A DNA stretch of 64,000 nucleotides, from NCBI GenBank assembly GCA_964533715.1, contig CAZHNI010000001.1:5514-69513 (forward strand). Reading direction: 5' to 3'. Both the position numbers and the translations under genes were made by a program. Each line of letters opens with the position of its first letter. The stretch's first letter is position 1. Source of the stretch: an uncultured Gammaproteobacteria bacterium (lineage in GTDB: Bacteria; Patescibacteriota; Patescibacteriia; Magasanikbacterales; GWA2-37-8). Positions 19,476-57,775 of the stretch are shown here, piece after piece. The notes below the pieces were generated by a model, which was not told the DNA's origin, did not search any database, and saw nothing but the letters and a program-made list of their open reading frames with translations.

Positions 19476-20004
19476 CATTAAAAATCCCCCGCAGTATGAG
19501 CGAGGGATTTTAGTTGTTTATTTTTTAAGACTCTTTGGTTTCATCCAGTAATTTTTACGACGGAATTTTTTTGTTTTTCGTGCCAAGGAGTGGGCTTTTT
19601 TAGTATTTTTTTTGGCGTGTTTTAAACGAGAGCGCAAGGCTGTGTTCATAAGATGATTATTTAAAAGTTTGGGTATAATAGCAGATTATCTTTAAAAATG
19701 CAAATTTTGCTTAGTCAAGCAAAAACTTTTCATTAAATTTTAAATTATTATTCGAGTAATTTAATTACCTAACCGTTGGTTGATACTCAGAATAGTACAC
19801 CTATAAAGTACACCTATACTTGACACCTGTAACAAATTGGTGTAGGCTTGTTTTGCCAAACTCCTGGCTTTTTTTGTTACCCAATTCGCCGCACCGCGCA
19901 TGTGGTGGGTAGGGAACAGGGGAACCACGGAGTTACAACCACGGGCCGCGCACGGCTGCGCGCGCCCACATCCCGCTACGCGAAAGGCGGGAGGAGGATT
20001 GACC

Positions 20005-25646: not shown

Positions 25647-26510
25647 ATGTATACGTCCGTAACAATTAAACAGTTGCACCACGCACTCCAAGCGCTTGAC
25701 CCATCAGCGCTTGTTTTGTTAGGGGGCAGTTATTTATATGACGAAGCGGTAGAGGAAAGTGATGTTGATTTTTATTTTATAATACCTTCATGGAAGATAT
25801 TTTTTTTAAAGAAATTTAAAAAAATAATTCAGAATTTAAAACAGCGTTTTTCTGGCGTGAATTTTAGTGTTATGATTGTGCCACAATGGCTTCGACGGCA
25901 TGGATACTATATTTATGGAAAAGATGTCAGCGGTAAAATTCATACATGGGAACTCCCAATTTCAATATTAATAAGGAATTGTCTTAAGCTGGCCTATTTT
26001 AATTATTTACGGTCAATGGTGGAACCAAAAAATAAAGAGAGAAATGTTCAGAAAGTAAAAAAGCAACTTGCGGTAGCAGAACTTGCCGCGCAAGGTAAGG
26101 TAGATTTTAAAGAACCAATTTTTTCGTGGAAATATATCAAACGACATTTGGTCTCGTCTGTCATTTCGACCGTAGCGACCAAAGGGAGCGAAGTGGAGAA
26201 ATCGCTTGACTGCAGTGACTCACAGATCAAGGGATTCCTCGACTGCGGCTTCGCCTTCGCTCGGAATGACAACGCGAATGACGGTCTACGGCAAGTGCAT
26301 GGACAATTCCTCCCATATTTTAATTTTTCCTTGTCAAATTATTTGCTTTACAATATTCGTTTTTTGCTCAAAGGCAACCCCTTGTTTCTATTTAGTAATC
26401 CTGATAAAATGGTGTTAGAAAAAATGGTTATTGGAATTGAGCACGAAGAAAAACTCCCAGAATTGTATAAAGAAATAAAAAGAATTGTTTTTCCTGTTAT
26501 TATTTTTTAA
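25647..26510 (+). CDS. nucleotidyltransferase-domain protein with an in-frame palindromic-element insertion
   Basis: LLGGSYLYDEAVEESDVDFYFI matches the pol-beta superfamily GS...DxD signature. Codons ~172-209 are encoded by repeat copy 26159-26271. Confidence 0.4.
   Translation: MYTSVTIKQLHHALQALDPSALVLLGGSYLYDEAVEESDVDFYFIIPSWKIFFLKKFKKIIQNLKQRFSGVNFSVMIVPQWLRRHGYYIYGKDVSGKIHTWELPISILIRNCLKLAYFNYLRSMVEPKNKERNVQKVKKQLAVAELAAQGKVDFKEPIFSWKYIKRHLVSSVISTVATKGSEVEKSLDCSDSQIKGFLDCGFAFARNDNANDGLRQVHGQFLPYFNFSLSNYLLYNIRFLLKGNPLFLFSNPDKMVLEKMVIGIEHEEKLPELYKEIKRIVFPVIIF
26159..26271. repeat. palindromic MITE-like element copy (TIR TGTCATTTCGACCG...CGCTCGGAATGACA), in frame in the nucleotidyltransferase gene
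   Basis: Terminal inverted repeats and internal sub-palindromes are shared with the other copies. Confidence 0.7.
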
Positions 26511-31214: not shown

Positions 31215-32165
31215 ATGATGATAGATACACACGCCCATGCGCACTTTAACGCCTATAAGGATGATATGGACGAAGTAATAGAGCGGAGCCTTGCTAGGGG
31301 TGCTGTTATTAATTTAGTTGGGACCCAAGCAGATACGAGCAAGCGGGCGGTTGAAGTCGCCGAAAAATATGACGGAGTATACGCCACAATTGGTCTTCAT
31401 CCAGAACATCTTTTTTCCAAGTGGGTTGACGAAGAAGAAACCTCTTTTCAATCGCGGGAAGAAAGTTTTGATTATGAGTACTACAAAAGTTTGGCGGTAA
31501 TGCCCAAAGTTATTGGCATAGGGGAGTGTGGGTTAGATTTTTACCGTATTCCCGAAGGTATGACCAAAGAGGCTATGCTCCCTAAACAGGCAGAAGTTTT
31601 TAGGCAGCATATTAATTTATCTCAAGAAACAAACTTGCCGCTGATAATTCATTGTCGTGAGGCGCATGAGGAGATGATTGCCATCCTGAACACGTTCGTT
31701 TCGCTCAGTGTAAACTCCGCGGAGCGTGGTGAAGGACCCCCTCAAAAGCAAGGGGATTATTCGGTCGTCCCGAGCAATTCGGGACTCCCTCAGAATGACA
31801 ATGCAAACAAAAAATTACGTGGCACGATGCACTGCTACACCAGCAGCTGGATTAATGCCCAAAAATATTTAGAAATGGGTTTTTACATTGGTTTTACCGG
31901 CGTTATTACATTTCCTCCCCAAAAAGCGAACCCGCAAGCCCAGGCGGATTTATTGGAAGTTGTTCGTAAGATGCCAGAGGACAGGATACTTTTGGAAACC
32001 GATTGCCCTTATTTATCACCAATTCCATATAGAGGAAAGCGAGGCGAGCCTTGGATGATTGAGGCAACAGCAGCAAAAATAGCGGAACTCCGCGGAATAA
32101 GTTTGGAAGAAACCCTAAGCGTAACAACAAAAAATGCGCGGAACCTTTTTCAGAAAATGGTTTAG
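31215..32165 (+). CDS. tatD: TatD-family metal-dependent hydrolase with an in-frame palindromic-element insertion
   Basis: IDTHAHAH, GECGLDFY, IIHCREAHEE, HCYTSSW and ETDCPYL motifs. About 35 extra residues (VSLSVNSAERGEGPPQKQGDYSVVPSNSGLPQNDNA) between the third and fourth metal-binding motifs are encoded by repeat copy 31697-31798. Confidence 0.7.
   Translation: MMIDTHAHAHFNAYKDDMDEVIERSLARGAVINLVGTQADTSKRAVEVAEKYDGVYATIGLHPEHLFSKWVDEEETSFQSREESFDYEYYKSLAVMPKVIGIGECGLDFYRIPEGMTKEAMLPKQAEVFRQHINLSQETNLPLIIHCREAHEEMIAILNTFVSLSVNSAERGEGPPQKQGDYSVVPSNSGLPQNDNANKKLRGTMHCYTSSWINAQKYLEMGFYIGFTGVITFPPQKANPQAQADLLEVVRKMPEDRILLETDCPYLSPIPYRGKRGEPWMIEATAAKIAELRGISLEETLSVTTKNARNLFQKMV
31697..31798. 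repeat. degenerate palindromic element copy, in frame in tatD
   Basis: Right TIR CCCTCAGAATGACA, left arm degenerate (CGTTTCGCTCAGTG), inner palindrome GTCCCGAGcaatTCGGGAC. Confidence 0.55.
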
Positions 32166-32503: not shown

Positions 32504-33286
32504 ATGTCCCAATTGATTTTACCACCACTCGGCGCTGAAACCATGTTTCATATTGGTTCGATACCTGTTACCAACACCATCGTTAACACTTGGATAGCGA
32601 TGGTTATTTTTTTAATCTTTGGCTTGGCGCTTCGCAAACGCGTATCGCTCCGACCAGGAAAATTGCAAAATTATTGCGAATATTTTTTGGATATTTTACT
32701 CGGATATTTTGACCAAGTAACTGGTAGCCGAAAAAAGACAATCCAATTTCTTCCTGTTGTTGGTTCAATTTTTTTCTTTATTTTACTTTCTAACTGGCTT
32801 GGGCTTCTCCCTGGAACCGGCAGCATTCTTAAGGGCCACGAACCATTGCTGCGTCCGGCTAATACCGATTTGAATTTAACCATTGCTATGGCCGCAGTGG
32901 CGGTTATTTCATCGCATATTTTTGGTTTTTTATCGGTAGGATTTTTTACACATATTGGTAAATTTGTTCAAATCAAAAATTTTATAAAAAGTATCCCCAA
33001 AGGTCCGGTTGCAATTTTTCAAGCAATTGTGGAATTTGCAGTTGGGCTAATTGAAATTGTGAGTGAACTTGCCAAAGTAATGTCGCTTTCACTTCGTCTT
33101 TTTGGTAATATTTTTGCTGGTGAAGTTTTAATGACGGTGATGCTTAGTTTGGTAGCGGCGGTGGTTCCGGTTCCATTTATGCTTTTGGAGTTGTTGGTCG
33201 GCATTATTCAAGCTAGTGTGTTTGCCATACTTACGTTAGTATATATGTCTGTTGCCAGCGCTGAACCACACGGAGCGGAACACTAA
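32504..33286 (+). CDS. atpB: F0F1 ATP synthase subunit a
   Basis: Five-six TM helices with the conserved Arg in LSLSLRLFGNIFAGEV. Confidence 0.85.
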   Translation: MSQLILPPLGAETMFHIGSIPVTNTIVNTWIAMVIFLIFGLALRKRVSLRPGKLQNYCEYFLDILLGYFDQVTGSRKKTIQFLPVVGSIFFFILLSNWLGLLPGTGSILKGHEPLLRPANTDLNLTIAMAAVAVISSHIFGFLSVGFFTHIGKFVQIKNFIKSIPKGPVAIFQAIVEFAVGLIEIVSELAKVMSLSLRLFGNIFAGEVLMTVMLSLVAAVVPVPFMLLELLVGIIQASVFAILTLVYMSVASAEPHGAEH

Positions 33287-33323
33287 AACATAAAAACACA
33301 AGAACATTAAAACACAATAAGCC

Positions 33324-33356
33324 GTTTTAATGTTTTAATGTTTTAATGTTTTAATG
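33324..33356. repeat. tandem octamer (TTTTAATG)x4 preceded by an 11-bp perfect hairpin in the atpB-atpE spacer
   Basis: AACATTAAAAC...GTTTTAATGTT stem, then GTTTTAATG repeated four times. Confidence 0.7.
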
Positions 33357-33701: not shown

Positions 33702-33824
33702 TGTCATTCTGAGCCTGCCTCCTGCATGCGCAGGTATGGCGCAGACAGGTGAAATGAAGAATCTTCCTATTATGAAGATCCTTCCCCAAAGGGGTCCCTT
33801 TGGGACGCTCTGCTCAGGATGACA
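33702..33824. repeat. palindromic element copy, intergenic atpE-atpF
   Basis: TIR TGTCATTCTGAGC...GCTCAGGATGACA. Carries the CCTGCCTCCTGCATGCGCAGG and GAAGAATCTTCCTATTATGAAGATCCTTC modules. Confidence 0.75.
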
Positions 33825-34776: not shown

Positions 34777-34884
34777 TGTCATTGCGAGGAGCAAAGCGAC
34801 GAAGCAATCCCCCTGAGTTCAGTGCTCCTGAAAACAAGGGGATCGCCACGTCAGCCGGTGCGAACCGGCTTCCTCGCGATGATA
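34777..34884. repeat. palindromic element copy, intergenic atpH-atpA
   Basis: TIR TGTCATTGCGAGG...CCTCGCGATGATA; shares the GCAATCCCCCTGA core with the rlmN copy. Confidence 0.7.
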
Positions 34885-34904
34885 GCTTTAATCTAATAAA
34901 ACCT

Positions 34905-36716: not shown

Positions 36717-37739
36717 ATGGCAGTAAGTACCAAAACAATTAAACGCCGCATCAAATCAATTTCCAACACCAAAAAAATTACTAAGGCCATGGAGATGATT
36801 AGTGCGGTAAAAATGCGCCGAGCGGTAGCCAATGTTTTGGCTACCCGAAATTATGCTAGCCTGGCTTGGGAAATGCTTAAAGAAATTTCCGAGTACACGC
36901 ACGATGGCCACCATGCACTCTTGCAAAAAAGGCCTGTTAAAAAAATCGGTCTCATTTTAATTACCAGTAACCGAGGGTTGGCTGGCGGTTTTAGCAGCCG
37001 GTTATTGCAGGAAGTAGACAGCTACATAAAAAAAATCACTCATCAAACTGTCATTCCGACGACACGTGCGCTCCGCTCAGTGCAGGCTCCAGAGGAATCT
37101 CTGGCTCATTCGAATGACGGACAGAGATCCCTCGTCGGCGCGAGCCTCACTCGGGATGACAAAGTGCAAATTGGCATTGAAGCCGACATCATTCTTACTG
37201 GTAAGCGCGGCAAAAAAATTTATCATCGTTTTGGGCACACTGTGGTGGCCGAATTTGATAAAGTAGATCTTACCACCAGAATTGAAGAAATTTTACCCAT
37301 GGCCCAGTTGGCGGTAAAAGAATTTGTTGCCGGAACATACGACCAAATTGTAGTGGCGTACATGCATTTTAAATCCGCAATTGAACAAGTGGCCACAGTA
37401 AAACAAATTTTGCCGCTTACGAAAGATTCAATTAAAGAACTGGCCGCCAAAGAAGCTGATGACACTGAAGAAATAGAAGAGAGCACATTTTTGTTTGAGC
37501 CAAACCCGGCGCTGGTGCTTGATGTACTCTTGCCACGTTTGGTTGAAATGCAAATGTATCAGGCAATTTTGGAATCGGACGCCTCCGAGCACAGCGCTCG
37601 CATGATGGCTATGCGAAACGCCAGTGATTCGGCCAGCGATATGATTAAAGAGTTGCAAAACAGCTTTAACAAAGCACGCCAAGCAGCTATTACCCAAGAA
37701 ATTAGTGAAATTGTGGGTGGTGCAGCGGCCCTGGAGTAA
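36717..37739 (+). CDS. atpG: F0F1 ATP synthase subunit gamma with an in-frame palindromic-element insertion
   Basis: Conserved N-terminus (TKTIKRRIKSISNTKKITKAMEMISAVKMRRA) and C-terminus (MMAMRNASDSA...ITQEISEIVGGAAALE). About 38 extra residues (TVIPTTRALRSV...TRDDK) are encoded by repeat copy 37049-37161. Confidence 0.85.
   Translation: MAVSTKTIKRRIKSISNTKKITKAMEMISAVKMRRAVANVLATRNYASLAWEMLKEISEYTHDGHHALLQKRPVKKIGLILITSNRGLAGGFSSRLLQEVDSYIKKITHQTVIPTTRALRSVQAPEESLAHSNDGQRSLVGASLTRDDKVQIGIEADIILTGKRGKKIYHRFGHTVVAEFDKVDLTTRIEEILPMAQLAVKEFVAGTYDQIVVAYMHFKSAIEQVATVKQILPLTKDSIKELAAKEADDTEEIEESTFLFEPNPALVLDVLLPRLVEMQMYQAILESDASEHSARMMAMRNASDSASDMIKELQNSFNKARQAAITQEISEIVGGAAALE
37049..37161. repeat. 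palindromic element copy, in frame in atpG
   Basis: TIR TGTCATTCCGACG...CTCGGGATGACA; inner GAGGAATCTCTGG...GGACAGAGATCC module. Confidence 0.75.
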
Positions 37740-40167: not shown

Positions 40168-40224
40168 TATTCCCCCTCCTCGACTCCTCCCTTATGTTTA
40201 GGGGAGGGATGTGGGCGGGGAATA
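40168..40224. repeat. GC-rich nested palindrome (second element class) downstream of the atp terminator
   Basis: TATTCCCC-CTCCTCG-ACTCCTCCC...GGGGAGGG...GGGGAATA nested inverted repeats; related in style to the helicase insert 44899-44975. Confidence 0.45.
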
Positions 40225-40235
40225 GAGTATAAATT

Positions 40236-41999
40236 ATGAAATATAACACAAGATTAACGTTAAAAATTTATTGGAGCGAAGCACGTCGACACTGGCTTTC
40301 GATGATTATTATTGTTATCGGAGTGGTGGGCGGTTCTTTTGCTGGAATTATTATCCCCCTTTATTTTAAGGCATTTTTTGATATTCTAGCGAGCTCAAAT
40401 TCATCAGCTGCTTCGGTCTCGGCTCTTTTTGGAGTGCTTGTTGCCATTGCCATGGTTGAGGCTGCTCGTTGGCTGTGTTGGCGCACCGCTGGTTTTTTTA
40501 ATAATTATTTTCAACCAAAAGTAATGGCAGCTTTGGCTAATCGATGTTTTGCATATTTGCACAAGCACTCTTTTGGGTACTTTAACAGCAATTTTGTTGG
40601 CTCTTTGGTTAAGCGTGTTAATTGGTTTACGCGCGCCTTCGAAAGTGTCGCCGATAAAATTACCTGGACATTCATTAACTTGTTTGTAGATTTAGGCGTG
40701 GTGGTGTTTATTTTATTTCGAAAAGATTTTCGTCTAGGCCTCGGCAGTTTAGCTTGGATTATTTTATTCTTATCGGTAAACTGGATTTTTACTTCATACA
40801 AATTACGGTTTGATATTAAACGCAACGAAGCCGAAACAAAAGCCACCGGTGTTTTAGCCGATACCATTACTAATAACAGTAATGTGAAGTTGTTTGTTGG
40901 GTATGGGCGCGAACGCCAAAGGTTTGCTGAGGCTATGGAAAAGGTACGCTATCTTCGCCGTTTCACTTGGAACCTCGACAGTGTATTTGAAGCTGTGCAA
41001 GGTTTTTTGGTAGTTTTGTTTGAGCTTGGTATTTTTTACTTAGCCACTATTCTTTGGAAAGAAGGACATTTAACGGTAGGTGACTTTGTCCTGCTTCAAT
41101 CATTCCTTATAATAATTTTTGATAAGGTGTGGGATTTTGGGAAGATCGTGCGTAATTTGTATACAGATTTATCGGATGCCGAAGAGATGACTGTCATATT
41201 AAATACCCCGCACGAAATTCAGGATGCTCCGGGAGCCAAAAAACTGCGCGTAGAAGCGGGTCTTATTCAGTTCAAGAATGTCGATTTTTATTATCACGAG
41301 ACGCGCAAAATTTTCCGAAAATTAAATTTGGAAATTGCCGGCAGTGAAAAAATTGCCTTAGTTGGCCCATCGGGGGCAGGTAAATCTACCATTATCAAAT
41401 TGCTTCTTCGCATGCATGATGTTTCGGGTGGGAGTATTTATATTGATAACCAAAAAGTATCGGCTGTAACGCAAGAAAGTTTGTGGGGAGCCATTAGTAT
41501 GGTGCCGCAGGATCCAATTTTGTTTCACCGCACGCTACTAGAAAATATTCGCTACGGCAAACCAGAGGCTACGGATGAAGAGGTGATTGCGGCCGCCAAA
41601 CTCGCACATTGTCATGAATTCATTTCGGAATTTCCAGACAAATATGAAACTTATGTGGGCGAACGCGGTGTCAAATTATCTGGCGGTGAACGTCAGCGTG
41701 TAGCTATTGCCCGGGCAATTTTACGCAACGCTCCAATACTGGTACTCGATGAAGCCACCTCGAGTCTTGATTCAGAATCCGAACATCTTATTCAAGATGC
41801 GTTGGCCAAACTCATGGAGAACAAAACCGTTATTGTAATCGCTCACCGTCTGTCTACTATAATGAAAATGGACAGAATTTTAGTGGTAGACCACGGCGAG
41901 GTGGTAGAAAGCGGTACCCACCAAGAGCTTCTTAAACTCAAATCCGGCCTTTATCATCAGCTGTGGAAACGACAGGCAGGTGGGTTTATACAGGACTAG
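40236..41999 (+). CDS. ABC transporter, fused permease/ATP-binding (MsbA-like exporter)
   Basis: Six-TM N-terminal domain, Walker A GPSGAGKST, signature LSGGERQRVAIARA, Walker B ILVLDEATS. Confidence 0.75.
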   Translation: MKYNTRLTLKIYWSEARRHWLSMIIIVIGVVGGSFAGIIIPLYFKAFFDILASSNSSAASVSALFGVLVAIAMVEAARWLCWRTAGFFNNYFQPKVMAALANRCFAYLHKHSFGYFNSNFVGSLVKRVNWFTRAFESVADKITWTFINLFVDLGVVVFILFRKDFRLGLGSLAWIILFLSVNWIFTSYKLRFDIKRNEAETKATGVLADTITNNSNVKLFVGYGRERQRFAEAMEKVRYLRRFTWNLDSVFEAVQGFLVVLFELGIFYLATILWKEGHLTVGDFVLLQSFLIIIFDKVWDFGKIVRNLYTDLSDAEEMTVILNTPHEIQDAPGAKKLRVEAGLIQFKNVDFYYHETRKIFRKLNLEIAGSEKIALVGPSGAGKSTIIKLLLRMHDVSGGSIYIDNQKVSAVTQESLWGAISMVPQDPILFHRTLLENIRYGKPEATDEEVIAAAKLAHCHEFISEFPDKYETYVGERGVKLSGGERQRVAIARAILRNAPILVLDEATSSLDSESEHLIQDALAKLMENKTVIVIAHRLSTIMKMDRILVVDHGEVVESGTHQELLKLKSGLYHQLWKRQAGGFIQD

Positions 42000-42005
42000 G
42001 GTAAT

Positions 42006-42070
42006 TGTCATTCCGAGCGAGGCCAAAGGCCGGCGAGAAATCTCTGTCTCAATCAAATGGACAGAGATTT
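42006..42070. repeat. truncated palindromic element copy (left TIR plus AAATCTCTGTCtcaatcaaatgGACAGAGATTT module)
   Basis: TGTCATTCCGAGCGAGGCC left end identical to the helicase copies; right TIR missing. Confidence 0.65.
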
Positions 42071-42075
42071 TTTTC

Positions 42076-42104
42076 TGGACAAATGTTTATATTTGTGCTA
42101 AAAT
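42076..42104 (+). promoter_or_regulatory. sigma-70-like promoter TGGACA-N17-TAAAAT upstream of rlmN
   Basis: Lies between two palindromic-element copies (42006-42070 and 42123-42187). Confidence 0.4.
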
Positions 42105-42122
42105 GAGCAAAAATTATCGAAT

Positions 42123-42187
42123 TGTCATTCTGAGTGAAACGAAGAATCCTCCTATTATGAAGATCCTTCGCTCCGCTCAGGATGACA
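42123..42187. repeat. short palindromic element copy immediately upstream of, and overlapping, the rlmN start region
   Basis: TGTCATTCTGAGTG...CGCTCAGGATGACA with the GAAGAATCCTCCTATTATGAAGATCCTTC module. Confidence 0.75.
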
Positions 42188-42199
42188 GACGATTATCAC

Positions 42200-43411
42200 A
42201 TGACTAAAATTGTCAAAACAATAGAATCCATTCTAGCTAATGAACCCGCCTTCCGCATTAAGCAAATTGAAAAGGCGTGGTTTGATGTGTCCTTAAATTC
42301 GTACGATGAAATTACTACCTTGCCAAAAGAGCTTCGCGAAAAATTAAAAGATATTCCCTGGTTAAGTTTGGAAGTCCACACCGAATTAAAAAGCAAAATG
42401 GATAACACGCGCAAATACCTTTTTAAACTAGGGGATGGGAATTTGATTGAGATGGTCTTGATGGGTCGTATGTCATTGCGAGCCCCGAAGGGGCGCGGCA
42501 ATCCCCCTGATTTGATCGAGGACGTTGACGAGGAGATTGCTTCGTCAGTCGCTGCGACGCTCCTTTCTCGCAATGACACATCGGCGATTGGCCGCGACAC
42601 CAGTGGCGATCGTTACACCATCTGTATTTCATCTCAAGCCGGGTGCCCCATGCGGTGTGCGTTTTGCGCCACGAGCAAAAGCGGTTTTAAGCGTAATCTT
42701 ACCGCCGAAGAAATTATAGATCAATATCGTTTCGCCCAGCGACTACTGGCCAAAGAAAATAATCGGGTGAATAATATTGTGCTCATGGGCCAAGGGGAAC
42801 CGCTGGTAAACTATGAGAACGTAAAAAAAGCGATCAATACTATTTTAAAAAACAGCGACATCGGCTCTACCAAAATAACTCTATCCACTGTTGGTTATGT
42901 GCCCGCCATGGAAAAAATGATAACCGACACCGACTTTCCGCCGGTGCGTTTTGCCTTGTCACTTCACAGCGCTATAGAAGAATCGCGTAAAAAAATTATT
43001 CCAACGCACAAACCAGGGTTTTTGGAATGGCTCGTGAAGTGGGGGAATGCCTACCACGAAAAATTTGGCAACCGCACCCATTTTATTGGTTTTGAGTACA
43101 TTATGTTAAGTGGGGTAAATGATGATGAAGCACATTTGAAGGCACTGATAAAATTGTGCAAACGTTTTCCTATCGTTCGCGTTAACCTCATTCCGTACAA
43201 CACCACCAACGATGCCGGTGAGGTTGATGAAATTAATAAATTGGAAGAACAAATGGGCTCTAATTATCGCATTTTTACCCGCACCCCGCACGAGCTTATT
43301 GAACATTGGCACGAGAGTCTTATGGATGCGGGAATTACGTCCACTATCCGTTATTCGCAGGGGCAGGATATTGCGGCGGCGTGTGGGCAACTCCGGAATA
43401 AAGAAAAATAG
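42200..43411 (+). CDS. rlmN: radical SAM rRNA/tRNA adenosine-C2 methyltransferase RlmN with an in-frame palindromic-element insertion
   Basis: Radical SAM CxxxCxxC (CPMRCAFC), GQGEPL, and a C-terminal catalytic Cys region. About 36 extra residues (MSLRAPKGRGNPPDLIEDVDEEIASSVAATLLSRND) upstream of the cluster are encoded by repeat copy 42471-42578. Start set at ATG 42200, because tracked start 42182 lies inside a repeat. Confidence 0.75.
   Translation: MTKIVKTIESILANEPAFRIKQIEKAWFDVSLNSYDEITTLPKELREKLKDIPWLSLEVHTELKSKMDNTRKYLFKLGDGNLIEMVLMGRMSLRAPKGRGNPPDLIEDVDEEIASSVAATLLSRNDTSAIGRDTSGDRYTICISSQAGCPMRCAFCATSKSGFKRNLTAEEIIDQYRFAQRLLAKENNRVNNIVLMGQGEPLVNYENVKKAINTILKNSDIGSTKITLSTVGYVPAMEKMITDTDFPPVRFALSLHSAIEESRKKIIPTHKPGFLEWLVKWGNAYHEKFGNRTHFIGFEYIMLSGVNDDEAHLKALIKLCKRFPIVRVNLIPYNTTNDAGEVDEINKLEEQMGSNYRIFTRTPHELIEHWHESLMDAGITSTIRYSQGQDIAAACGQLRNKEK
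42471..42578. repeat. palindromic element copy, in frame in rlmN (108 bp, 36 codons)
   Basis: TIR TGTCATTGCGAGC...CTCGCAATGACA. Confidence 0.75.
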
Positions 43412-44376: not shown

Positions 44377-47300
44377 ATGGGAAAATACTCTTTAAACAAG
44401 GCGCAACGTGAAGCCGTGGAGTATACCAGCGGCCCGCTTTTGATTGTGGCTGGGGCGGGGACGGGAAAGACGACGGTGATTACAAGTAAAATTTGTCGGT
44501 TGATTGAGGAAAAACTCGCCAAACCCGAGGAAATTTTGGCATTAACGTTTACCGAAAAAGCGGCGGCGGAAATGCAGGATAGGGTAGATGAGATAACCAA
44601 TATTGGCTACGCCGATCTCCACATTTCTACCTTCCACGCCTTTTGTCAAAAAATTCTGGAGCGGCATGCCATTGATATCGGCCTCTCCAATTCGTTTAAA
44701 CTCCTCACCGACACGGCGGGCTGGGTTTTGCTCCACAAAAATTTGGATAAATTTAATTTGGATTACTACCGACCGCTCGGCAACCCTACTAAACACATTC
44801 ACGAATTTTTAAAACATTTTTCTAAGTGCAAAGATGAATTAATTACACCGCAGGAATATTTGGAGTATGCGGAAGGTTTAAAATTGAACAATGGACGAGA
44901 CCCCACCCTGCCCTCCCCTTTGCGAAGGAGAGGGGACAAAACCCCCTCCTCTGCAGAGGAGGGGGTAGGGGGAGATCTCGCGGAGGTCGAGCGGCTTACG
45001 GAAATTGCCAACGCGTATCACACGTATAATCAACTGCTTTTGGACAACGCGCTATTTGATTTTGGCGATTTGCTTTTTTATACCGTCAAATTATTTCGCG
45101 AACGGCCGAATGTGCTCAAAATGTTCCAGAATAAATATAAATATATTTTGGTGGATGAATTTCAGGATGTGAACTATTCGCAGTATGAATTAATTAAACT
45201 CCTGGCGGACGCCTCATTGTCATTTCGACCGGAGCCCCAAAGGGGCGAAGTGGAGAAATCCCTGTCTCAATCACGAACGGACAGAGATTCCCTGCCTGCA
45301 CCATGCCTGCGCATGCAGGAGGCAGGCTCGTCGGCCTCCGGCCTCGCTCGGAATGACAATATTGTTGGTCCCAACCTCACCGTGGTAGGGGATGATGACC
45401 AAAGTATTTATGCCTTTCGCGGCGCCAGTGTGGCGAATATTCTAAGGTTTAAAGATGATTATCCAACAGCCAAAGAAGTGGTGCTATCGGAAAATTTTCG
45501 TTCCGGCCAAAAGATTTTGGATGTGGCGTATGAGTCTATTCAGAACAATAACCCGGATCGGTTGGAAGTGAAGTTAAAGATAGACAAGCGACTAAAGGCC
45601 AAAAGGCCATCTGTCATTTCGACGACGAAGGAGAAATCTCTGGCTCACCAAACGATGAATAGAGATTCCCTGCCTGCACCATGCCTGCGCATGCAGGAGG
45701 CAGGCTCGTCGGCCTCCGGCCTCGCTCGGAATGACAATGGGGATGGCGTGGTGATACATTTGCACAAACCAACCGTCGAAGACGAGGTAGCGGCTGTTTT
45801 GGACGAAATTACGCGTATTAAAACGGTTACCGAAGGCGTAACCTGGGATGATTTTGCTATTTTGGTTCGTGCCAACAATCACGCGGATGCGTTTATAAAC
45901 CAACTGCAAACACGAGGCATTCCATACGAATTTTTGGCTTCTAGCGGATTGTATCGTCAACCGATTATTTTGGATTGCATAAACTTTTTTAAACTCCTGA
46001 ATAATTATCACGAATCCAGCGCAATTTATCGACTGCTCTGTTTACCTTTTTTTGAATTTAGAGAAAATGATTTACAAAAAATTACCTTTAATGCCAAGCG
46101 CAAAAGTATTTCGTATTACGAAGCACTCAAACGCGCTCCCGAATTTGATGTGTCGCAAGCAGGGATTAGCGTGTGTGCTAAATTGGTGGAAGTAATTCAT
46201 GCCGGCCTCCAGAGTATGCGTTACGAAAAGCCATCGGTGGTGCTGTATTCATTTTTGGAAAATAGTGGTTACCTCAAATACTTAACACACCAGGAAAACG
46301 AAGGTAAGGGCGATGTGATTCGCCAAATTCATTATTTAAAACAGTTTTTTGATTACATTGCGCAGTATGAATCGGTAACGCCTGAGGCGCATGTGGTCGG
46401 GTTTATAGAGCATTTTATGATGGTAGTGGACGCGGGTGATAAGGGAAGCCTCTACCAGCCGAGCGACACACCGGATTCCGTAAATATTTTGACGGTGCAC
46501 GCCTCCAAGGGCTTGGAATTTCGCTATGTGTTTGTAGTGAATTTGGTAGAAGATCGGTTTCCATCACGCAGTCGCAGTGACGCGCTGGAAATTCCGCTTG
46601 AACTCGTGAAAGAGCAATTGCCGGAAGGCGATAGCCATATTCAAGAAGAACGACGATTGTTTTATGTGGCCATGACGCGCGCCAAGGAACGTTTGTATTT
46701 TACCAGCGCGAGCGATTATGGTGGTACGCGCACAAAAAAGATTAGCCGATTTTTGGCGGAGTTAGATTTTGGTTCTGTCATTCTGAACGGAGCAAAGCGC
46801 AGTGAAGAATCCCTGTCTGCGCAGGCAGGTCTGTCTCAATCACCAACCGACGGACAGGGATCCTTCGCTTCGCTCAGGATGACAAAAAAAGTAAATGAAA
46901 TGAGTGAGCGAGTGTACGAAACGCCAAAAACTTTTTCATTCTCACAATTGCGATCGTACGAAACCTGTCCATATCAATACAAACTGGCGCATATTTTGCA
47001 TATCCCCATGAAGGGCAGTGCGAGTTTTAGTTTTGGTTCCAGCATGCACAACACACTCCAAGCGTTTTATGAACGGGTAATTGAGCTTAACAGTTCCAAA
47101 CAAGTCTCACTTTTTGACACACCCAAACCATCTGTCATCCCGAGCGTAGTCGAGGGATCCCTTTCGCCAACGTCAAGGGATTCCTCCACTCCGCTACGCT
47201 CCGGTCGGAATGACAAAGCGGTGAAAGTACCAGAATTTGAGGAGCTCTTAAAAATGTACGACGCTAAGTGGATTTCGGATTGGTTTAAGGATAAACGCCA

Positions 47301-56491: not shown

Positions 56492-57775
56492 ATGATAGAC
56501 ATAAAATTTATTCGAGAGAGTAGGGCGCTCGTTGAAAAAAATAATACAGCCCGTCGCGTTTCCATTGACTTGGACGCTTTGTTAGCGCTTGATGCAGAAT
56601 ATCTTGATTTGCAAAAAAAGGCCGATGATTTACGCGCGAAACGAAATCAACGTTCCAAAACCAAACCAACAGATGAAGAGATAGCCCTAATGCGAAAATT
56701 AGGCGATGAAATAACGGATTTAGAGGGCCTGGCAAAAGAAAAATGGGATGATCTTAAACAACTTTTATATAAATTACCTAACTTTACGCACACTGATGTG
56801 CCTATTGGAAAGGATGATACGGAAAATAAAGTTGTGCGCAAAGTAGGGGAACCAAAAATATTTAATTTTAAACCTTTAGAACATTTCGAACTTGGTGAAA
56901 AGCTTGGGTTAATTGACCTCACAACCGCCGCTAAAGTTTCTGGTTCTCGGTTCGCATATCTTAAGGGGGCTCTAGCACTCCTCGAATTTGCTTTAGTTCA
57001 ACATGTTTTTTCCATTCTTACAAATGCAGAAATATTAGAAAAAATTATTACCGAAAATAAGCTCACTGTTTCTGCTAAACCTTTTTTACCAATTGTTCCG
57101 CCGGTAATGATTCGCCCCGATGTATTTGAAAAAATGGGCCGACTAGAACCACGTGAAGAGCGCTATCATTTGGACCAAGACGATATGTATTTGGTGGGGA
57201 GTGCGGAACACACCCTCGGCCCCATGCATATGGACAGCACTTTTACGGAAAGCGAACTGCCTGTACGCTATATTGGTTTTTCTACAGCGTTCCGTCGTGA
57301 GGCTGGTAGTTATGGTAAAGATACTAAGGGAATTTTTCGAGTTCATCAGTTTGATAAAATGGAGATGGAGTCATTTACTACTGCGGAGCAATCTGCTTCT
57401 GAGCAAGATCTTATATTGGCTATTCAAGAATATCTTATGCAATCGCTTGGTATCCCATATCAGGTATTACTTAAATGTACCGGCGACATGGGTTTGCCGG
57501 ATTACCGTGAGTATGATATTGAAGCTTGGTTGCCAGGGCAGGGAAAATATCGCGAAACACATACAGCCGATCTTATGACCGACTACCAATCGCGCCGTTT
57601 AAATATAAAGGTAAAACGATCTACCGGTAAAGCAGAGCTTGTTCACATGAATGACGCAACGGCTTTTGCCATTGGCAGGACTCTTATCGCCATCATGGAA
57701 AATTATCAGACCGAGGATGGCCATATTATTGTTCCAGAAGCTCTTAAAAAGTACGTTAGTTTTGACCGCATCTAA
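56492..57775 (+). CDS. serS: seryl-tRNA synthetase
   Basis: N-terminal coiled-coil arm plus class II core (FRREAGSYGKDTKGIFRVHQFDKME, and motif 3 GRTLIAIMENYQ). Confidence 0.88.
   Translation: MIDIKFIRESRALVEKNNTARRVSIDLDALLALDAEYLDLQKKADDLRAKRNQRSKTKPTDEEIALMRKLGDEITDLEGLAKEKWDDLKQLLYKLPNFTHTDVPIGKDDTENKVVRKVGEPKIFNFKPLEHFELGEKLGLIDLTTAAKVSGSRFAYLKGALALLEFALVQHVFSILTNAEILEKIITENKLTVSAKPFLPIVPPVMIRPDVFEKMGRLEPREERYHLDQDDMYLVGSAEHTLGPMHMDSTFTESELPVRYIGFSTAFRREAGSYGKDTKGIFRVHQFDKMEMESFTTAEQSASEQDLILAIQEYLMQSLGIPYQVLLKCTGDMGLPDYREYDIEAWLPGQGKYRETHTADLMTDYQSRRLNIKVKRSTGKAELVHMNDATAFAIGRTLIAIMENYQTEDGHIIVPEALKKYVSFDRI

Follow-up and report, generated by a model that had tools for sequence, protein, structure and literature searches.

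How does a palindromic DNA element enter a coding gene, and how does it survive there? The question is said to have stood unanswered ever since the description of the Rickettsia elements in 2000. The locus described here poses it for a bacterium of the Candidate Phyla Radiation (CPR). A 64-kb stretch of DNA from this organism (64,000 nt of contig CAZHNI010000001.1, assembly GCA_964533715.1; "the window" below means this whole stretch) contains a 113-nt palindrome, at 26159-26271, within the gene for a nucleotidyltransferase (NTase). We believe, with a probability of about 0.7, that this segment is a non-autonomous member, lacking an open reading frame (ORF), of a compact palindromic family found in many bacterial phyla; that it resembles the Rickettsia palindromic elements (RPEs); and that it derives from units which carry a gene for a GIY-YIG nuclease and are similar to the Ssn/NTS systems.

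An insertion in a nucleotidyltransferase gene

The host protein matches Pfam NTP_transf_2 at its N-terminus (27.5 bits, cutoff 21), and its relatives are found in Candidatus Magasanikbacteria (CPR/Patescibacteria). Translated in the frame of the host, 26159-26271 gives VISTVATKGSEVEKSLDCSDSQIKGFLDCGFAFARNDN (amino acids 172-209), whose final N is a host codon that occurs also in an insert-free ortholog; read-through would be expected to yield peptides such as HLVSSVISTVATK or GFLDCGFAFAR. An earlier note on this DNA had proposed that a copy of an element lies in frame in an NTase gene. The ORF (25647-26510), the domain match and the exact peptide bear this out.

The segment is absent from the NTase orthologs P0003, P0006, P0008, P0009 and P0010 (249-258 aa, 51-57% identity). 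At the empty site of one Magasanikbacteria locus (L128), the DNA encodes ...E-R-L followed directly by N-A-N..., where the window has ...R-H-L-V-S-S-(VIST...ARND)-N-A-N..., a difference of 40 codons; the Asn codon common to both takes in the last A of the window's ATGACA. Base composition changes at the same place. The GC content of the element is 54%, against about 30-40% for the gene; 100-nt windows elsewhere in the surrounding stretch lie at 0.29-0.42, and there is a jump to 0.55 at the insert. Despite the insert, the host ORF and the conserved motifs downstream of it are intact. The segment therefore has the features of an RPE-like element: a palindrome within an ORF, with the frame kept and no stop codons, that is absent from related orthologs.

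Downstream of the element, at 26272-26282 and 5 nt away, CGAATGAC echoes the right end (NDN-AND). In the empty-site ortholog AACGCCAATCAG stands at this position, and so the insertion target may itself have looked like an end of the element.

What becomes of the additional codons? In an AlphaFold2 model of the host protein (19-sequence alignment, mean pLDDT 80.9, pTM 0.78), the means of ten-residue blocks are 82 at residues 161-170, then 54, 44, 50 and 46 over residues 171-210, and 78 at 211-220, with flanks at 78-90. Low pLDDT confined to the insert is consistent with an external excursion from the fold and is not proof of one. Since the intragenic copies of this lineage keep the frame and have no stops, despite long divergence and variable lengths, we infer with moderate confidence that the insert is read through as a tolerated, hydrophilic excursion of ~38 residues. 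The translated insert is probably disordered.

The same loop has been used more than once. In the NTase of locus L122 (P0007) an independent, complete family member, TGTCATTCCGA...TCGAGATGACA, lies ~6 codons further along, with the other open frame in use (LSFRIP...SLEMTS), and other NTase orthologs carry unrelated G-rich inserts at this position. An independent copy and unrelated inserts in one loop mark it as a permissive hot spot. A comparable picture is given by a 1141-aa UvrD/PD-(D/E)XK helicase encoded in the window, which hosts four copies. Its closest ortholog, P0024, has none of the four, and P0023 has only one. TatD, whose gene in the window also contains a copy, and the helicase have inserts that are kept at the same sites across several genomes. 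In addition, the same helicase loops (including that of 47133-47215; core columns 257 and 342) have received independent inserts of differing subtype, length and frame in different genomes. Such recurrent use suggests either structural permissiveness or target preference. The helicase ortholog P0042 (1344 aa) is interrupted at core column 267 by 361 aa with Hint/intein Pfam domains, an intein that the window helicase lacks.

A repeat family within the window

If the segment were a native, lineage-specific loop of the protein, its likeness to repeats would be a matter of chance. The loop does vary in length among orthologs, as such an explanation would have it. Yet the end motif GCTCGGAATGACAA, allowing up to 2 mismatches, occurs 16 times in the window where 0.33 occurrences are expected. 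Together with the jump in GC, the absence of the segment from the closest orthologs and an architecture common to copies in other phyla, these repeat statistics refute a native loop, to which we give practically no credence.

The module GGGATTCCTCGAC, again with up to 2 mismatches, has 4 matches against 0.57 expected, a number that none of 100 shuffles reaches. The other three, at 45250, 47149 and 47177, are all inside helicase copies, in agreement with the statement of the earlier note that the ends and this module match those copies. There are about 12 family copies in the window, all between 26.1 and 47.2 kb. No end motif occurs in the window before 26160 or after 47215, and the NTase copy is indeed, as had been noted, the first and most upstream member. 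The copies are mosaics: for example, one of the inner modules that helicase copies 1 and 2 share is found again, in inverted orientation, within the intergenic copy (33711-33749).

Architecture and distribution

The element folds as a long hairpin (-45.3 kcal/mol, z = -3.85; none of 200 shuffles folds as well). Its ends, of the TGTCATT..GA / TC..AATGACA type, have complementary bases at 12 of 14 positions, or at 13 of 14 if one T.G wobble is included. Each end belongs to a smaller hairpin unit. The left unit is TGTC-ATTTC...GAAAT-C (26159-26203), and the right unit, on the minus strand, is TGTC-ATTCC...GGAAT-C. In a 12-sequence cross-phylum alignment the key columns, GTC-ATTYY..RRAAT-C, are invariant: a hairpin with an oriented flank, as in the Ssn-related motif (SRM). 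Ssn proteins are single-domain GIY-YIG nucleases of ~94 aa (cd10448) that cut single-stranded DNA (ssDNA) beside the NTS hairpin CGTCATTCCCGCGMAVGCGGGAATCYRG, which has the form CGTCATTCCCGCG..GCGGGAATC (Chenal et al., Nat Commun 2025, PMC11893778).

A scan of species representatives (one genome per species) with the pattern TGTCATTNNGA-N(75-105)-TCNNAATGACA found at least 120 loci in Bacteroidota, Chloroflexota, Bacillota, Planctomycetota, Acidobacteriota, Desulfobacterota, Pseudomonadota, Omnitrophota, CPR and others, and the same pattern occurs in 76 viral contigs. Among the matches listed, the variable dinucleotides of the ends covary, with Watson-Crick pairs at both positions in 98 of 133 copies; GC/GC, TC/GA, CC/GG and CT/AG are the four main variants. 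The layout is shared across phyla. The outer-left end is followed by a variable mini-hairpin, an inner-left G-R-n'n'-AATC with its stem, and the loop; then come the second strand of the stem with GATT-nn-YC, another mini-hairpin and the outer-right end. Compensatory changes are seen at 7 of the 20 pairs of the consensus fold. The sequence GCGAAGC, known as an unusually stable DNA mini-hairpin, is present in 48 of 206 copies, where shuffles give 3.1. Beyond CPR the copies lie for the most part between genes: among the matches listed, 21 of 133 are in an open frame of at least 200 codons, mostly at the 5' edges of ORFs. On a Dehalococcoidia chromosome (OZ253489.1; L040:215-1522), six near-identical 121-nt copies occur within 1.3 kb at a spacing of 151-330 nt, an array-like local amplification. 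The literature gave nothing relevant on the end sequences, on the encoded peptides (ARNDN, FARNDK and others), or on transposable elements of the miniature inverted-repeat type (MITEs) or RPEs in CPR.

Could the fold act in RNA, as a regulatory or processing hairpin of the mRNA or as an intervening sequence removed before translation? The window copies have strong predicted folds (z from -2.5 to -8) and the stems covary. At positions 7-8 of the terminal stems, where a left-end T stands opposite the right-end complement C, the T.G wobble is on the sense strand in 7 copies, and the pattern is reversed in 1. We rejected this asymmetry as evidence of an RNA role, because total fold energies do not favor the sense strand: summed over whole elements they are -517 kcal/mol for antisense and -495 for sense, and equally good antisense folds are what a DNA palindrome is expected to give. 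Rfam finds only three tRNAs in the whole window at the gathering threshold, and only a chance mir-341 match in 26000-26450 at E<=1. Under removal at the RNA level, nothing would require every intragenic copy to remain in frame and free of stops. Moreover, neither RNA nor double-stranded DNA is a substrate of Ssn, and SsnA, which acts on ssDNA, does not bind RNA (PMC11893778). A role as RNA, in either form, appears to us very improbable. An intein was also rejected, the segment being far too small and without splicing motifs, as was a group I or group II intron, for which there is no Rfam match, the frame moreover being preserved.

The GIY-YIG gene

Does the family have a gene of its own? All four clear GIY-YIG ORFs in the 120 loci listed are 31-121 nt from an element, and one of them (L085) is flanked on both sides. 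The proteins next to elements are single-domain, 90-101 aa long, and match Pfam PF01541 only; NCBIfam has no specific model for them. We also started from the gene, with 80 metagenome loci that encode relatives of these proteins. End motifs are present within 300 nt of the GIY-YIG gene in 43 of the 80, and on both sides in 33 (41%). Their density is 3.58 per kb within 300 nt and 0.05-0.48 farther out, an enrichment of at least 7-fold. In other genomes, then, the family flanks single-domain genes of the ~94-aa GIY-YIG type, as SRMs do. No GIY-YIG genes were found beside the 76 viral-contig copies.

In four of the loci (L231, L263, L238 and L245) the order is end-hairpin-stem, ORF, stem-hairpin-end, with the ORF exactly in the central loop; an example reads TGTCATTGCGAG..GGCAATCCAGAGT / ATG...stop / ACTCTGGATTGCC..CTCGCAATGACA. 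Judged by its sequence, the window element is such a full-length unit minus its GIY-YIG ORF. A complete end-GIY-YIG-end unit (L245:1534-3330) stands directly 3' of an atpD that is 69% identical to the window atpD, and the ATP synthase operon of the window holds ORF-less copies. A GIY-YIG gene from CPR itself, in L118, was rejected as a partner, being flanked by a different hairpin repeat that is not of the GTCATT type. There (L118:650-1100, Komeilibacteria) two copies of a GC-rich repeat (GACGAAGTAGCCGTCAGGCTACGG...) precede the gene, which hints at other pairings of nuclease and repeat in CPR.

The short, numerous copies without an ORF, and inverted-repeat ends starting TG...CA, could also be those of a classical MITE, that is, a deletion derivative of an insertion sequence that is cut and pasted by a DDE transposase acting on its terminal inverted repeats. 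The ends, however, are hairpin units with internal pairing partners and not simple terminal repeats, and the only gene recurrently bracketed by them encodes the ~95-aa GIY-YIG protein. Target-site duplication also fails to appear: direct repeats of 3 nt or more are found at the junctions of 0 of 133 copies (2.2 expected by chance at 3 nt), and 2-nt repeats at 12, against 7.3 expected. We consider a classical MITE improbable. The earlier note had called the ends terminal inverted repeats; the classical transposon that the term suggests is not borne out.

The clustering in the window suggests a different explanation. If the copies serve the host, they might be marks of the NTS kind, by which the recombination or transformation of flanked genes is modulated. 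In Neisseria, NTS cluster around particular genes, and NTS together with SsnA lowers the integration of transforming DNA (PMC11893778). The 12 window copies within 21 of 64 kb (33% of the window; P about 4e-5 for 12 points) echo this, and retention of the TatD and helicase inserts at the same sites would be in keeping with a function. However, the clustering may reflect local spread, copies degenerate where they lie (the left end of that in TatD is no longer regular), and no nuclease partner is seen in this lineage, neither in the 64-kb window nor in ~75 kb of syntenic loci. Also, most copies here are inside genes, against 2% in Neisseria, which fits passive tolerance in a compact genome. Service to the host is therefore, in our opinion, unlikely.

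The reading frame of the copies

The earlier note drew attention to the recurrence of ARNDN at the end of the encoded peptides. The right end can be read as GCT CGG AAT GAC A, giving A-R-N-D (frame a, open), as TCG GAA TGA, which is a stop (frame b), or as CTC GGA ATG ACA, giving L-G-M-T (frame c, open). The baseline is a set of 129 distinct copies of other genomes, each taken in its two orientations: of these 258, none has frame b open, 118 have frame a open and 107 have frame c open. The 8 intragenic copies of the window all keep the frame of the host and are free of stops; the intergenic copy at 33702 has stops in all three forward frames. Seven of the 8 use frame a, and the 46776 copy alone uses frame c. 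The right-end frame of the NTase copy is thus that of 3 of the 4 helicase copies, so that the proposal of a shared element frame holds for most of them: the copies at 45218 and 45612 end with ARNDN and that at 47133 with GRNDK in the same frame, but the copy at 46776 is in the other.

Is the recurrence due to chance, as the earlier note allowed? For the most part it follows from the conservation of the end GCTCGGAATGACAA together with the closure of one frame by TGA. When the sample is widened with syntenic loci of relatives and 120 helicase orthologs, further frame-a inserts are found in TatD (L122, L123), in RsmI (L125, L127) and at three helicase sites, and further frame-c inserts in the L122 NTase and in the helicases P0027 and P0077, both of the latter in a loop where the window has a frame-a copy. 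Intragenic events in Magasanikbacteria, delimited by eye, then number ~14 in frame a and 4 in frame c (one-sided p = 0.025 against a null of 118:107); counted by distinct gene sites only, they are 8 and 3 (p = 0.15). That xRND is preferred to the other open frame is, then, suggested and not established. Frame-a peptides are the more hydrophilic (mean Kyte-Doolittle -0.64 versus -0.19, p = 1e-11, in copies from other genomes, which are mostly outside genes), and this is one plausible cause of any such preference.

A possible origin

The following course of events may be proposed. Each end of the element is an SRM/NTS-like hairpin unit consisting of GTC, ATTnn, a loop that often contains GCGAAGC, n'n'AAT and C. 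There is one unit per strand, both pointing inward and joined by the inner stem, and in full-length units the central loop holds the ~95-aa single-domain GIY-YIG nuclease gene. A copy may have landed in, or been copied into, the loop-coding part of the NTase gene in an ancestor of Magasanikbacteria, where it would have survived by virtue of comprising a whole number of codons with no stop in the host frame. Selection may have favored the more hydrophilic xRND frame. As to how the copies spread, we have less confidence. They may have been mobilized as ssDNA hairpins, with an Ssn-type nuclease, provided in trans, cutting immediately outside each GTC; with one oriented unit per strand, the cuts would fall just outside both ends.

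Several observations weigh against such an origin. Neither the 64-kb window nor ~75 kb of syntenic loci from Magasanikbacteria (L122-L128) contains a GIY-YIG gene, and comparison of the genes flanking the 80 metagenome loci with the window proteins gave generic ATP-synthase similarity only, so that no GIY-YIG unit could be traced to Magasanikbacteria. The window copies are diverged and mosaic (mean column identity 43%), with no sign of recent transposition in this genome. The solved structures nearest to the neighboring GIY-YIG proteins are those of the UPF0213 proteins 1ZG2 and 1YWL. Finally, the published SRM string HGTCWYN(0-2)YYVSBRHN(0-5)WNVSBRGN(0-2)RNCYNB matches at none of the window copies; its sole match in the window, at 57369 (shuffles give 0.1), is unrelated to the elements.

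The locus connects an in-frame element of RPE-like behavior, found in a CPR genome, with a defined full-length unit that has a GIY-YIG nuclease gene and Ssn/NTS features. That link joins two literatures and gives a concrete enzyme and substrate, namely both strands of the 113-nt element as ssDNA. It also points to a hairpin family of many bacterial phyla that the published SRM search string misses. For the annotation of CPR genomes, low-complexity inserts of 30-50 residues (from VI.. or SFR.. to ..RND. or ..MT.) should be expected in essential proteins, as selfish DNA and not as lineage-specific domains.

A bolder generalization can be offered only tentatively, and we doubt it more than we believe it. 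RPE-like coding palindromes as a whole might descend from compact, hairpin-bounded GIY-YIG units of the Ssn type, with ORF-less derivatives that spread via ssDNA hairpins cut outside each GTC, recolonize the same permissive loops of housekeeping proteins in CPR bacteria and are selected for the hydrophilic xRND frame; the 21-kb cluster might then mark a region in which recombination or uptake is modulated, as by NTS in Neisseria.

Features of the window

The features discussed above are collected in Table 1.

Table 1. Positions in the window of the host gene, the element and its parts, and the other family copies
Feature	Position	Strand	Remarks
Host gene	25647..26510	+	287-aa NTP_transf_2-domain protein; synteny ProRS-NTase-exonuclease across Magasanikbacteria
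Element under study	26159..26271	.	113-nt palindromic GC-rich insert, aa 172-208 of the NTase-domain protein, in frame
Outer-left end TGTCATTTCGACCG	26159..26172	+	GTC + ATTTC half-palindrome; pairs with outer-right end
Variable mini-hairpin region	26173..26193	+	holds GCGAAG, a degenerate GCGAAGC unit
Inner-left module TGGAGAAATCGCTTGA	26194..26209	+	GAAAT-C closes left SRM-like hairpin; CTTGA opens inner stem
Central loop	26210..26226	.	site of GIY-YIG ORF in full-length units elsewhere
Inner-right module TCAAGGGATTCCTCGAC	26227..26243	+	includes the GGGATTCCTCGAC module (26231-26243) of the earlier note
Outer-right end CGCTCGGAATGACA	26258..26271	+	read A-R-N-D-(N); last A in host codon AAC, common to empty-site ortholog
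Copy in TatD, in frame	31679..31800	.	degenerate left end; ...PQNDN
Intergenic copy upstream of atpF	33702..33824	.	family copy
Copy just upstream of atpA	34777..34885	.	family copy
Copy in ATP synthase gamma (atpG), in frame	37049..37161	.	...TRDDK
Intergenic partial copy and short copy	42006..42187	.	left half + inner hairpin + T-run, then 65-nt copy (42123-42187)
Copy in radical-SAM/RlmN-like gene, in frame	42471..42578	.	...SRNDT
Right-end fragment	44345		family match
Helicase copy 1, in frame	45218..45358	.	...ARNDN
Helicase copy 2, in frame	45612..45736	.	...ARNDN; 109-nt right part 90% identical to copy 1
Helicase copy 3, in frame	46776..46884	.	other open frame, ...SLRMTK
Helicase copy 4, 83 nt, in frame	47133..47215	.	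...GRNDK

A few other observations can be mentioned. Just after a gene that ends at 41999, the left half of an element with its inner hairpin is followed by seven T (42006-42080) and looks like an intrinsic terminator made from an element fragment. A second, unrelated family of GC-rich hairpins (CCCCTCC...GGAGGGG) is present at 44905-44965, 40173-40220 and 19963-19996; it occurs between genes and also in frame in the helicase, where it encodes PTLPSPLRRRGDKTPSSAEEG. Similar inserts of the type PSPxxGGxGGGV / PPTPLKGG are found in the NTase orthologs P0002, P0005 and P0007 and in the helicase orthologs P0025, P0027, P0040, P0085 and P0096. AT-rich repeats of the GTTTTAAT type form an imperfect inverted repeat (33281-33356) at the end of the ORF 32504-33286.

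Comparison with known systems

We know other examples of short palindromic repeats in bacteria. The MITEs Correia (Neisseria) and Nezha (cyanobacteria) are, like the present family, small, present in many copies and bounded by inverted ends, and they occasionally insert in frame. In contrast to it, they duplicate the target site and have their origin in DDE insertion sequences. REP/BIME elements with their RAYT genes (IS200/IS605-like Y1 transposases) are similar in that short hairpins flank one small nuclease or transposase gene, make no target duplication and presumably move by an ssDNA mechanism. The window family is without the GTAG/CTAC head of REPs, its ends beginning with TGTCAT; the gene it brackets is GIY-YIG and not HUH/Y1, although no search dedicated to RAYT genes was made. 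REPs, furthermore, are extragenic.

In behavior the closest match is with the RPEs and their Wolbachia counterparts, reportedly described by Ogata et al. in 2000 and 2002. In both cases a small genome has palindromes of ~100-150 bp that sit in its housekeeping genes with the frame kept. Orthologs do not have them; their codons add, or in our case probably add, segments to the protein, and the copies degenerate where they stand. The host in our case is a CPR bacterium (Magasanikbacteria), and the likeness is one of behavior. The tie to a full-length unit carrying a GIY-YIG gene has been shown for the window family and not for RPEs.

In structure and gene content the nearest relatives are Ssn, NTS and SRM. 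The hairpin unit signature (GTC, ATTCC..GGAAT, C) is common to both, and the nucleotides that matter to SsnA, which depends for binding most on the C after the palindrome and for cutting on the 3 nt upstream (PMC11893778), are invariant in the window family. In either case the repeats bracket a ~95-aa single-domain GIY-YIG gene: SRMs are near 71% of ssn genes and on both sides of 42% (PMC11893778), compared with 41% here. Like NTS, and also like dRS3 and the Neisseria intergenic mosaic elements, the family is numerous, clustered and mosaic and makes no target duplication; Rickettsia, Wolbachia and Neisseria have more than 300 SRMs each (PMC11893778). There are differences as well. Stem and loop are GAGCG-A/G-AGCGA here and CGCG-MAV-GCG in NTS, our loops are longer, and our unit is a composite of two inverted hairpins and an inner stem. 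The majority of the copies in this genome lie within genes, in frame, whereas only 2% of NTS are inside genes in N. meningitidis (PMC11893778). With these differences in mind, the family is one of hairpin repeats of the Ssn/NTS kind which, in this CPR genome, behave as RPEs do, and no new biology is required to account for it.

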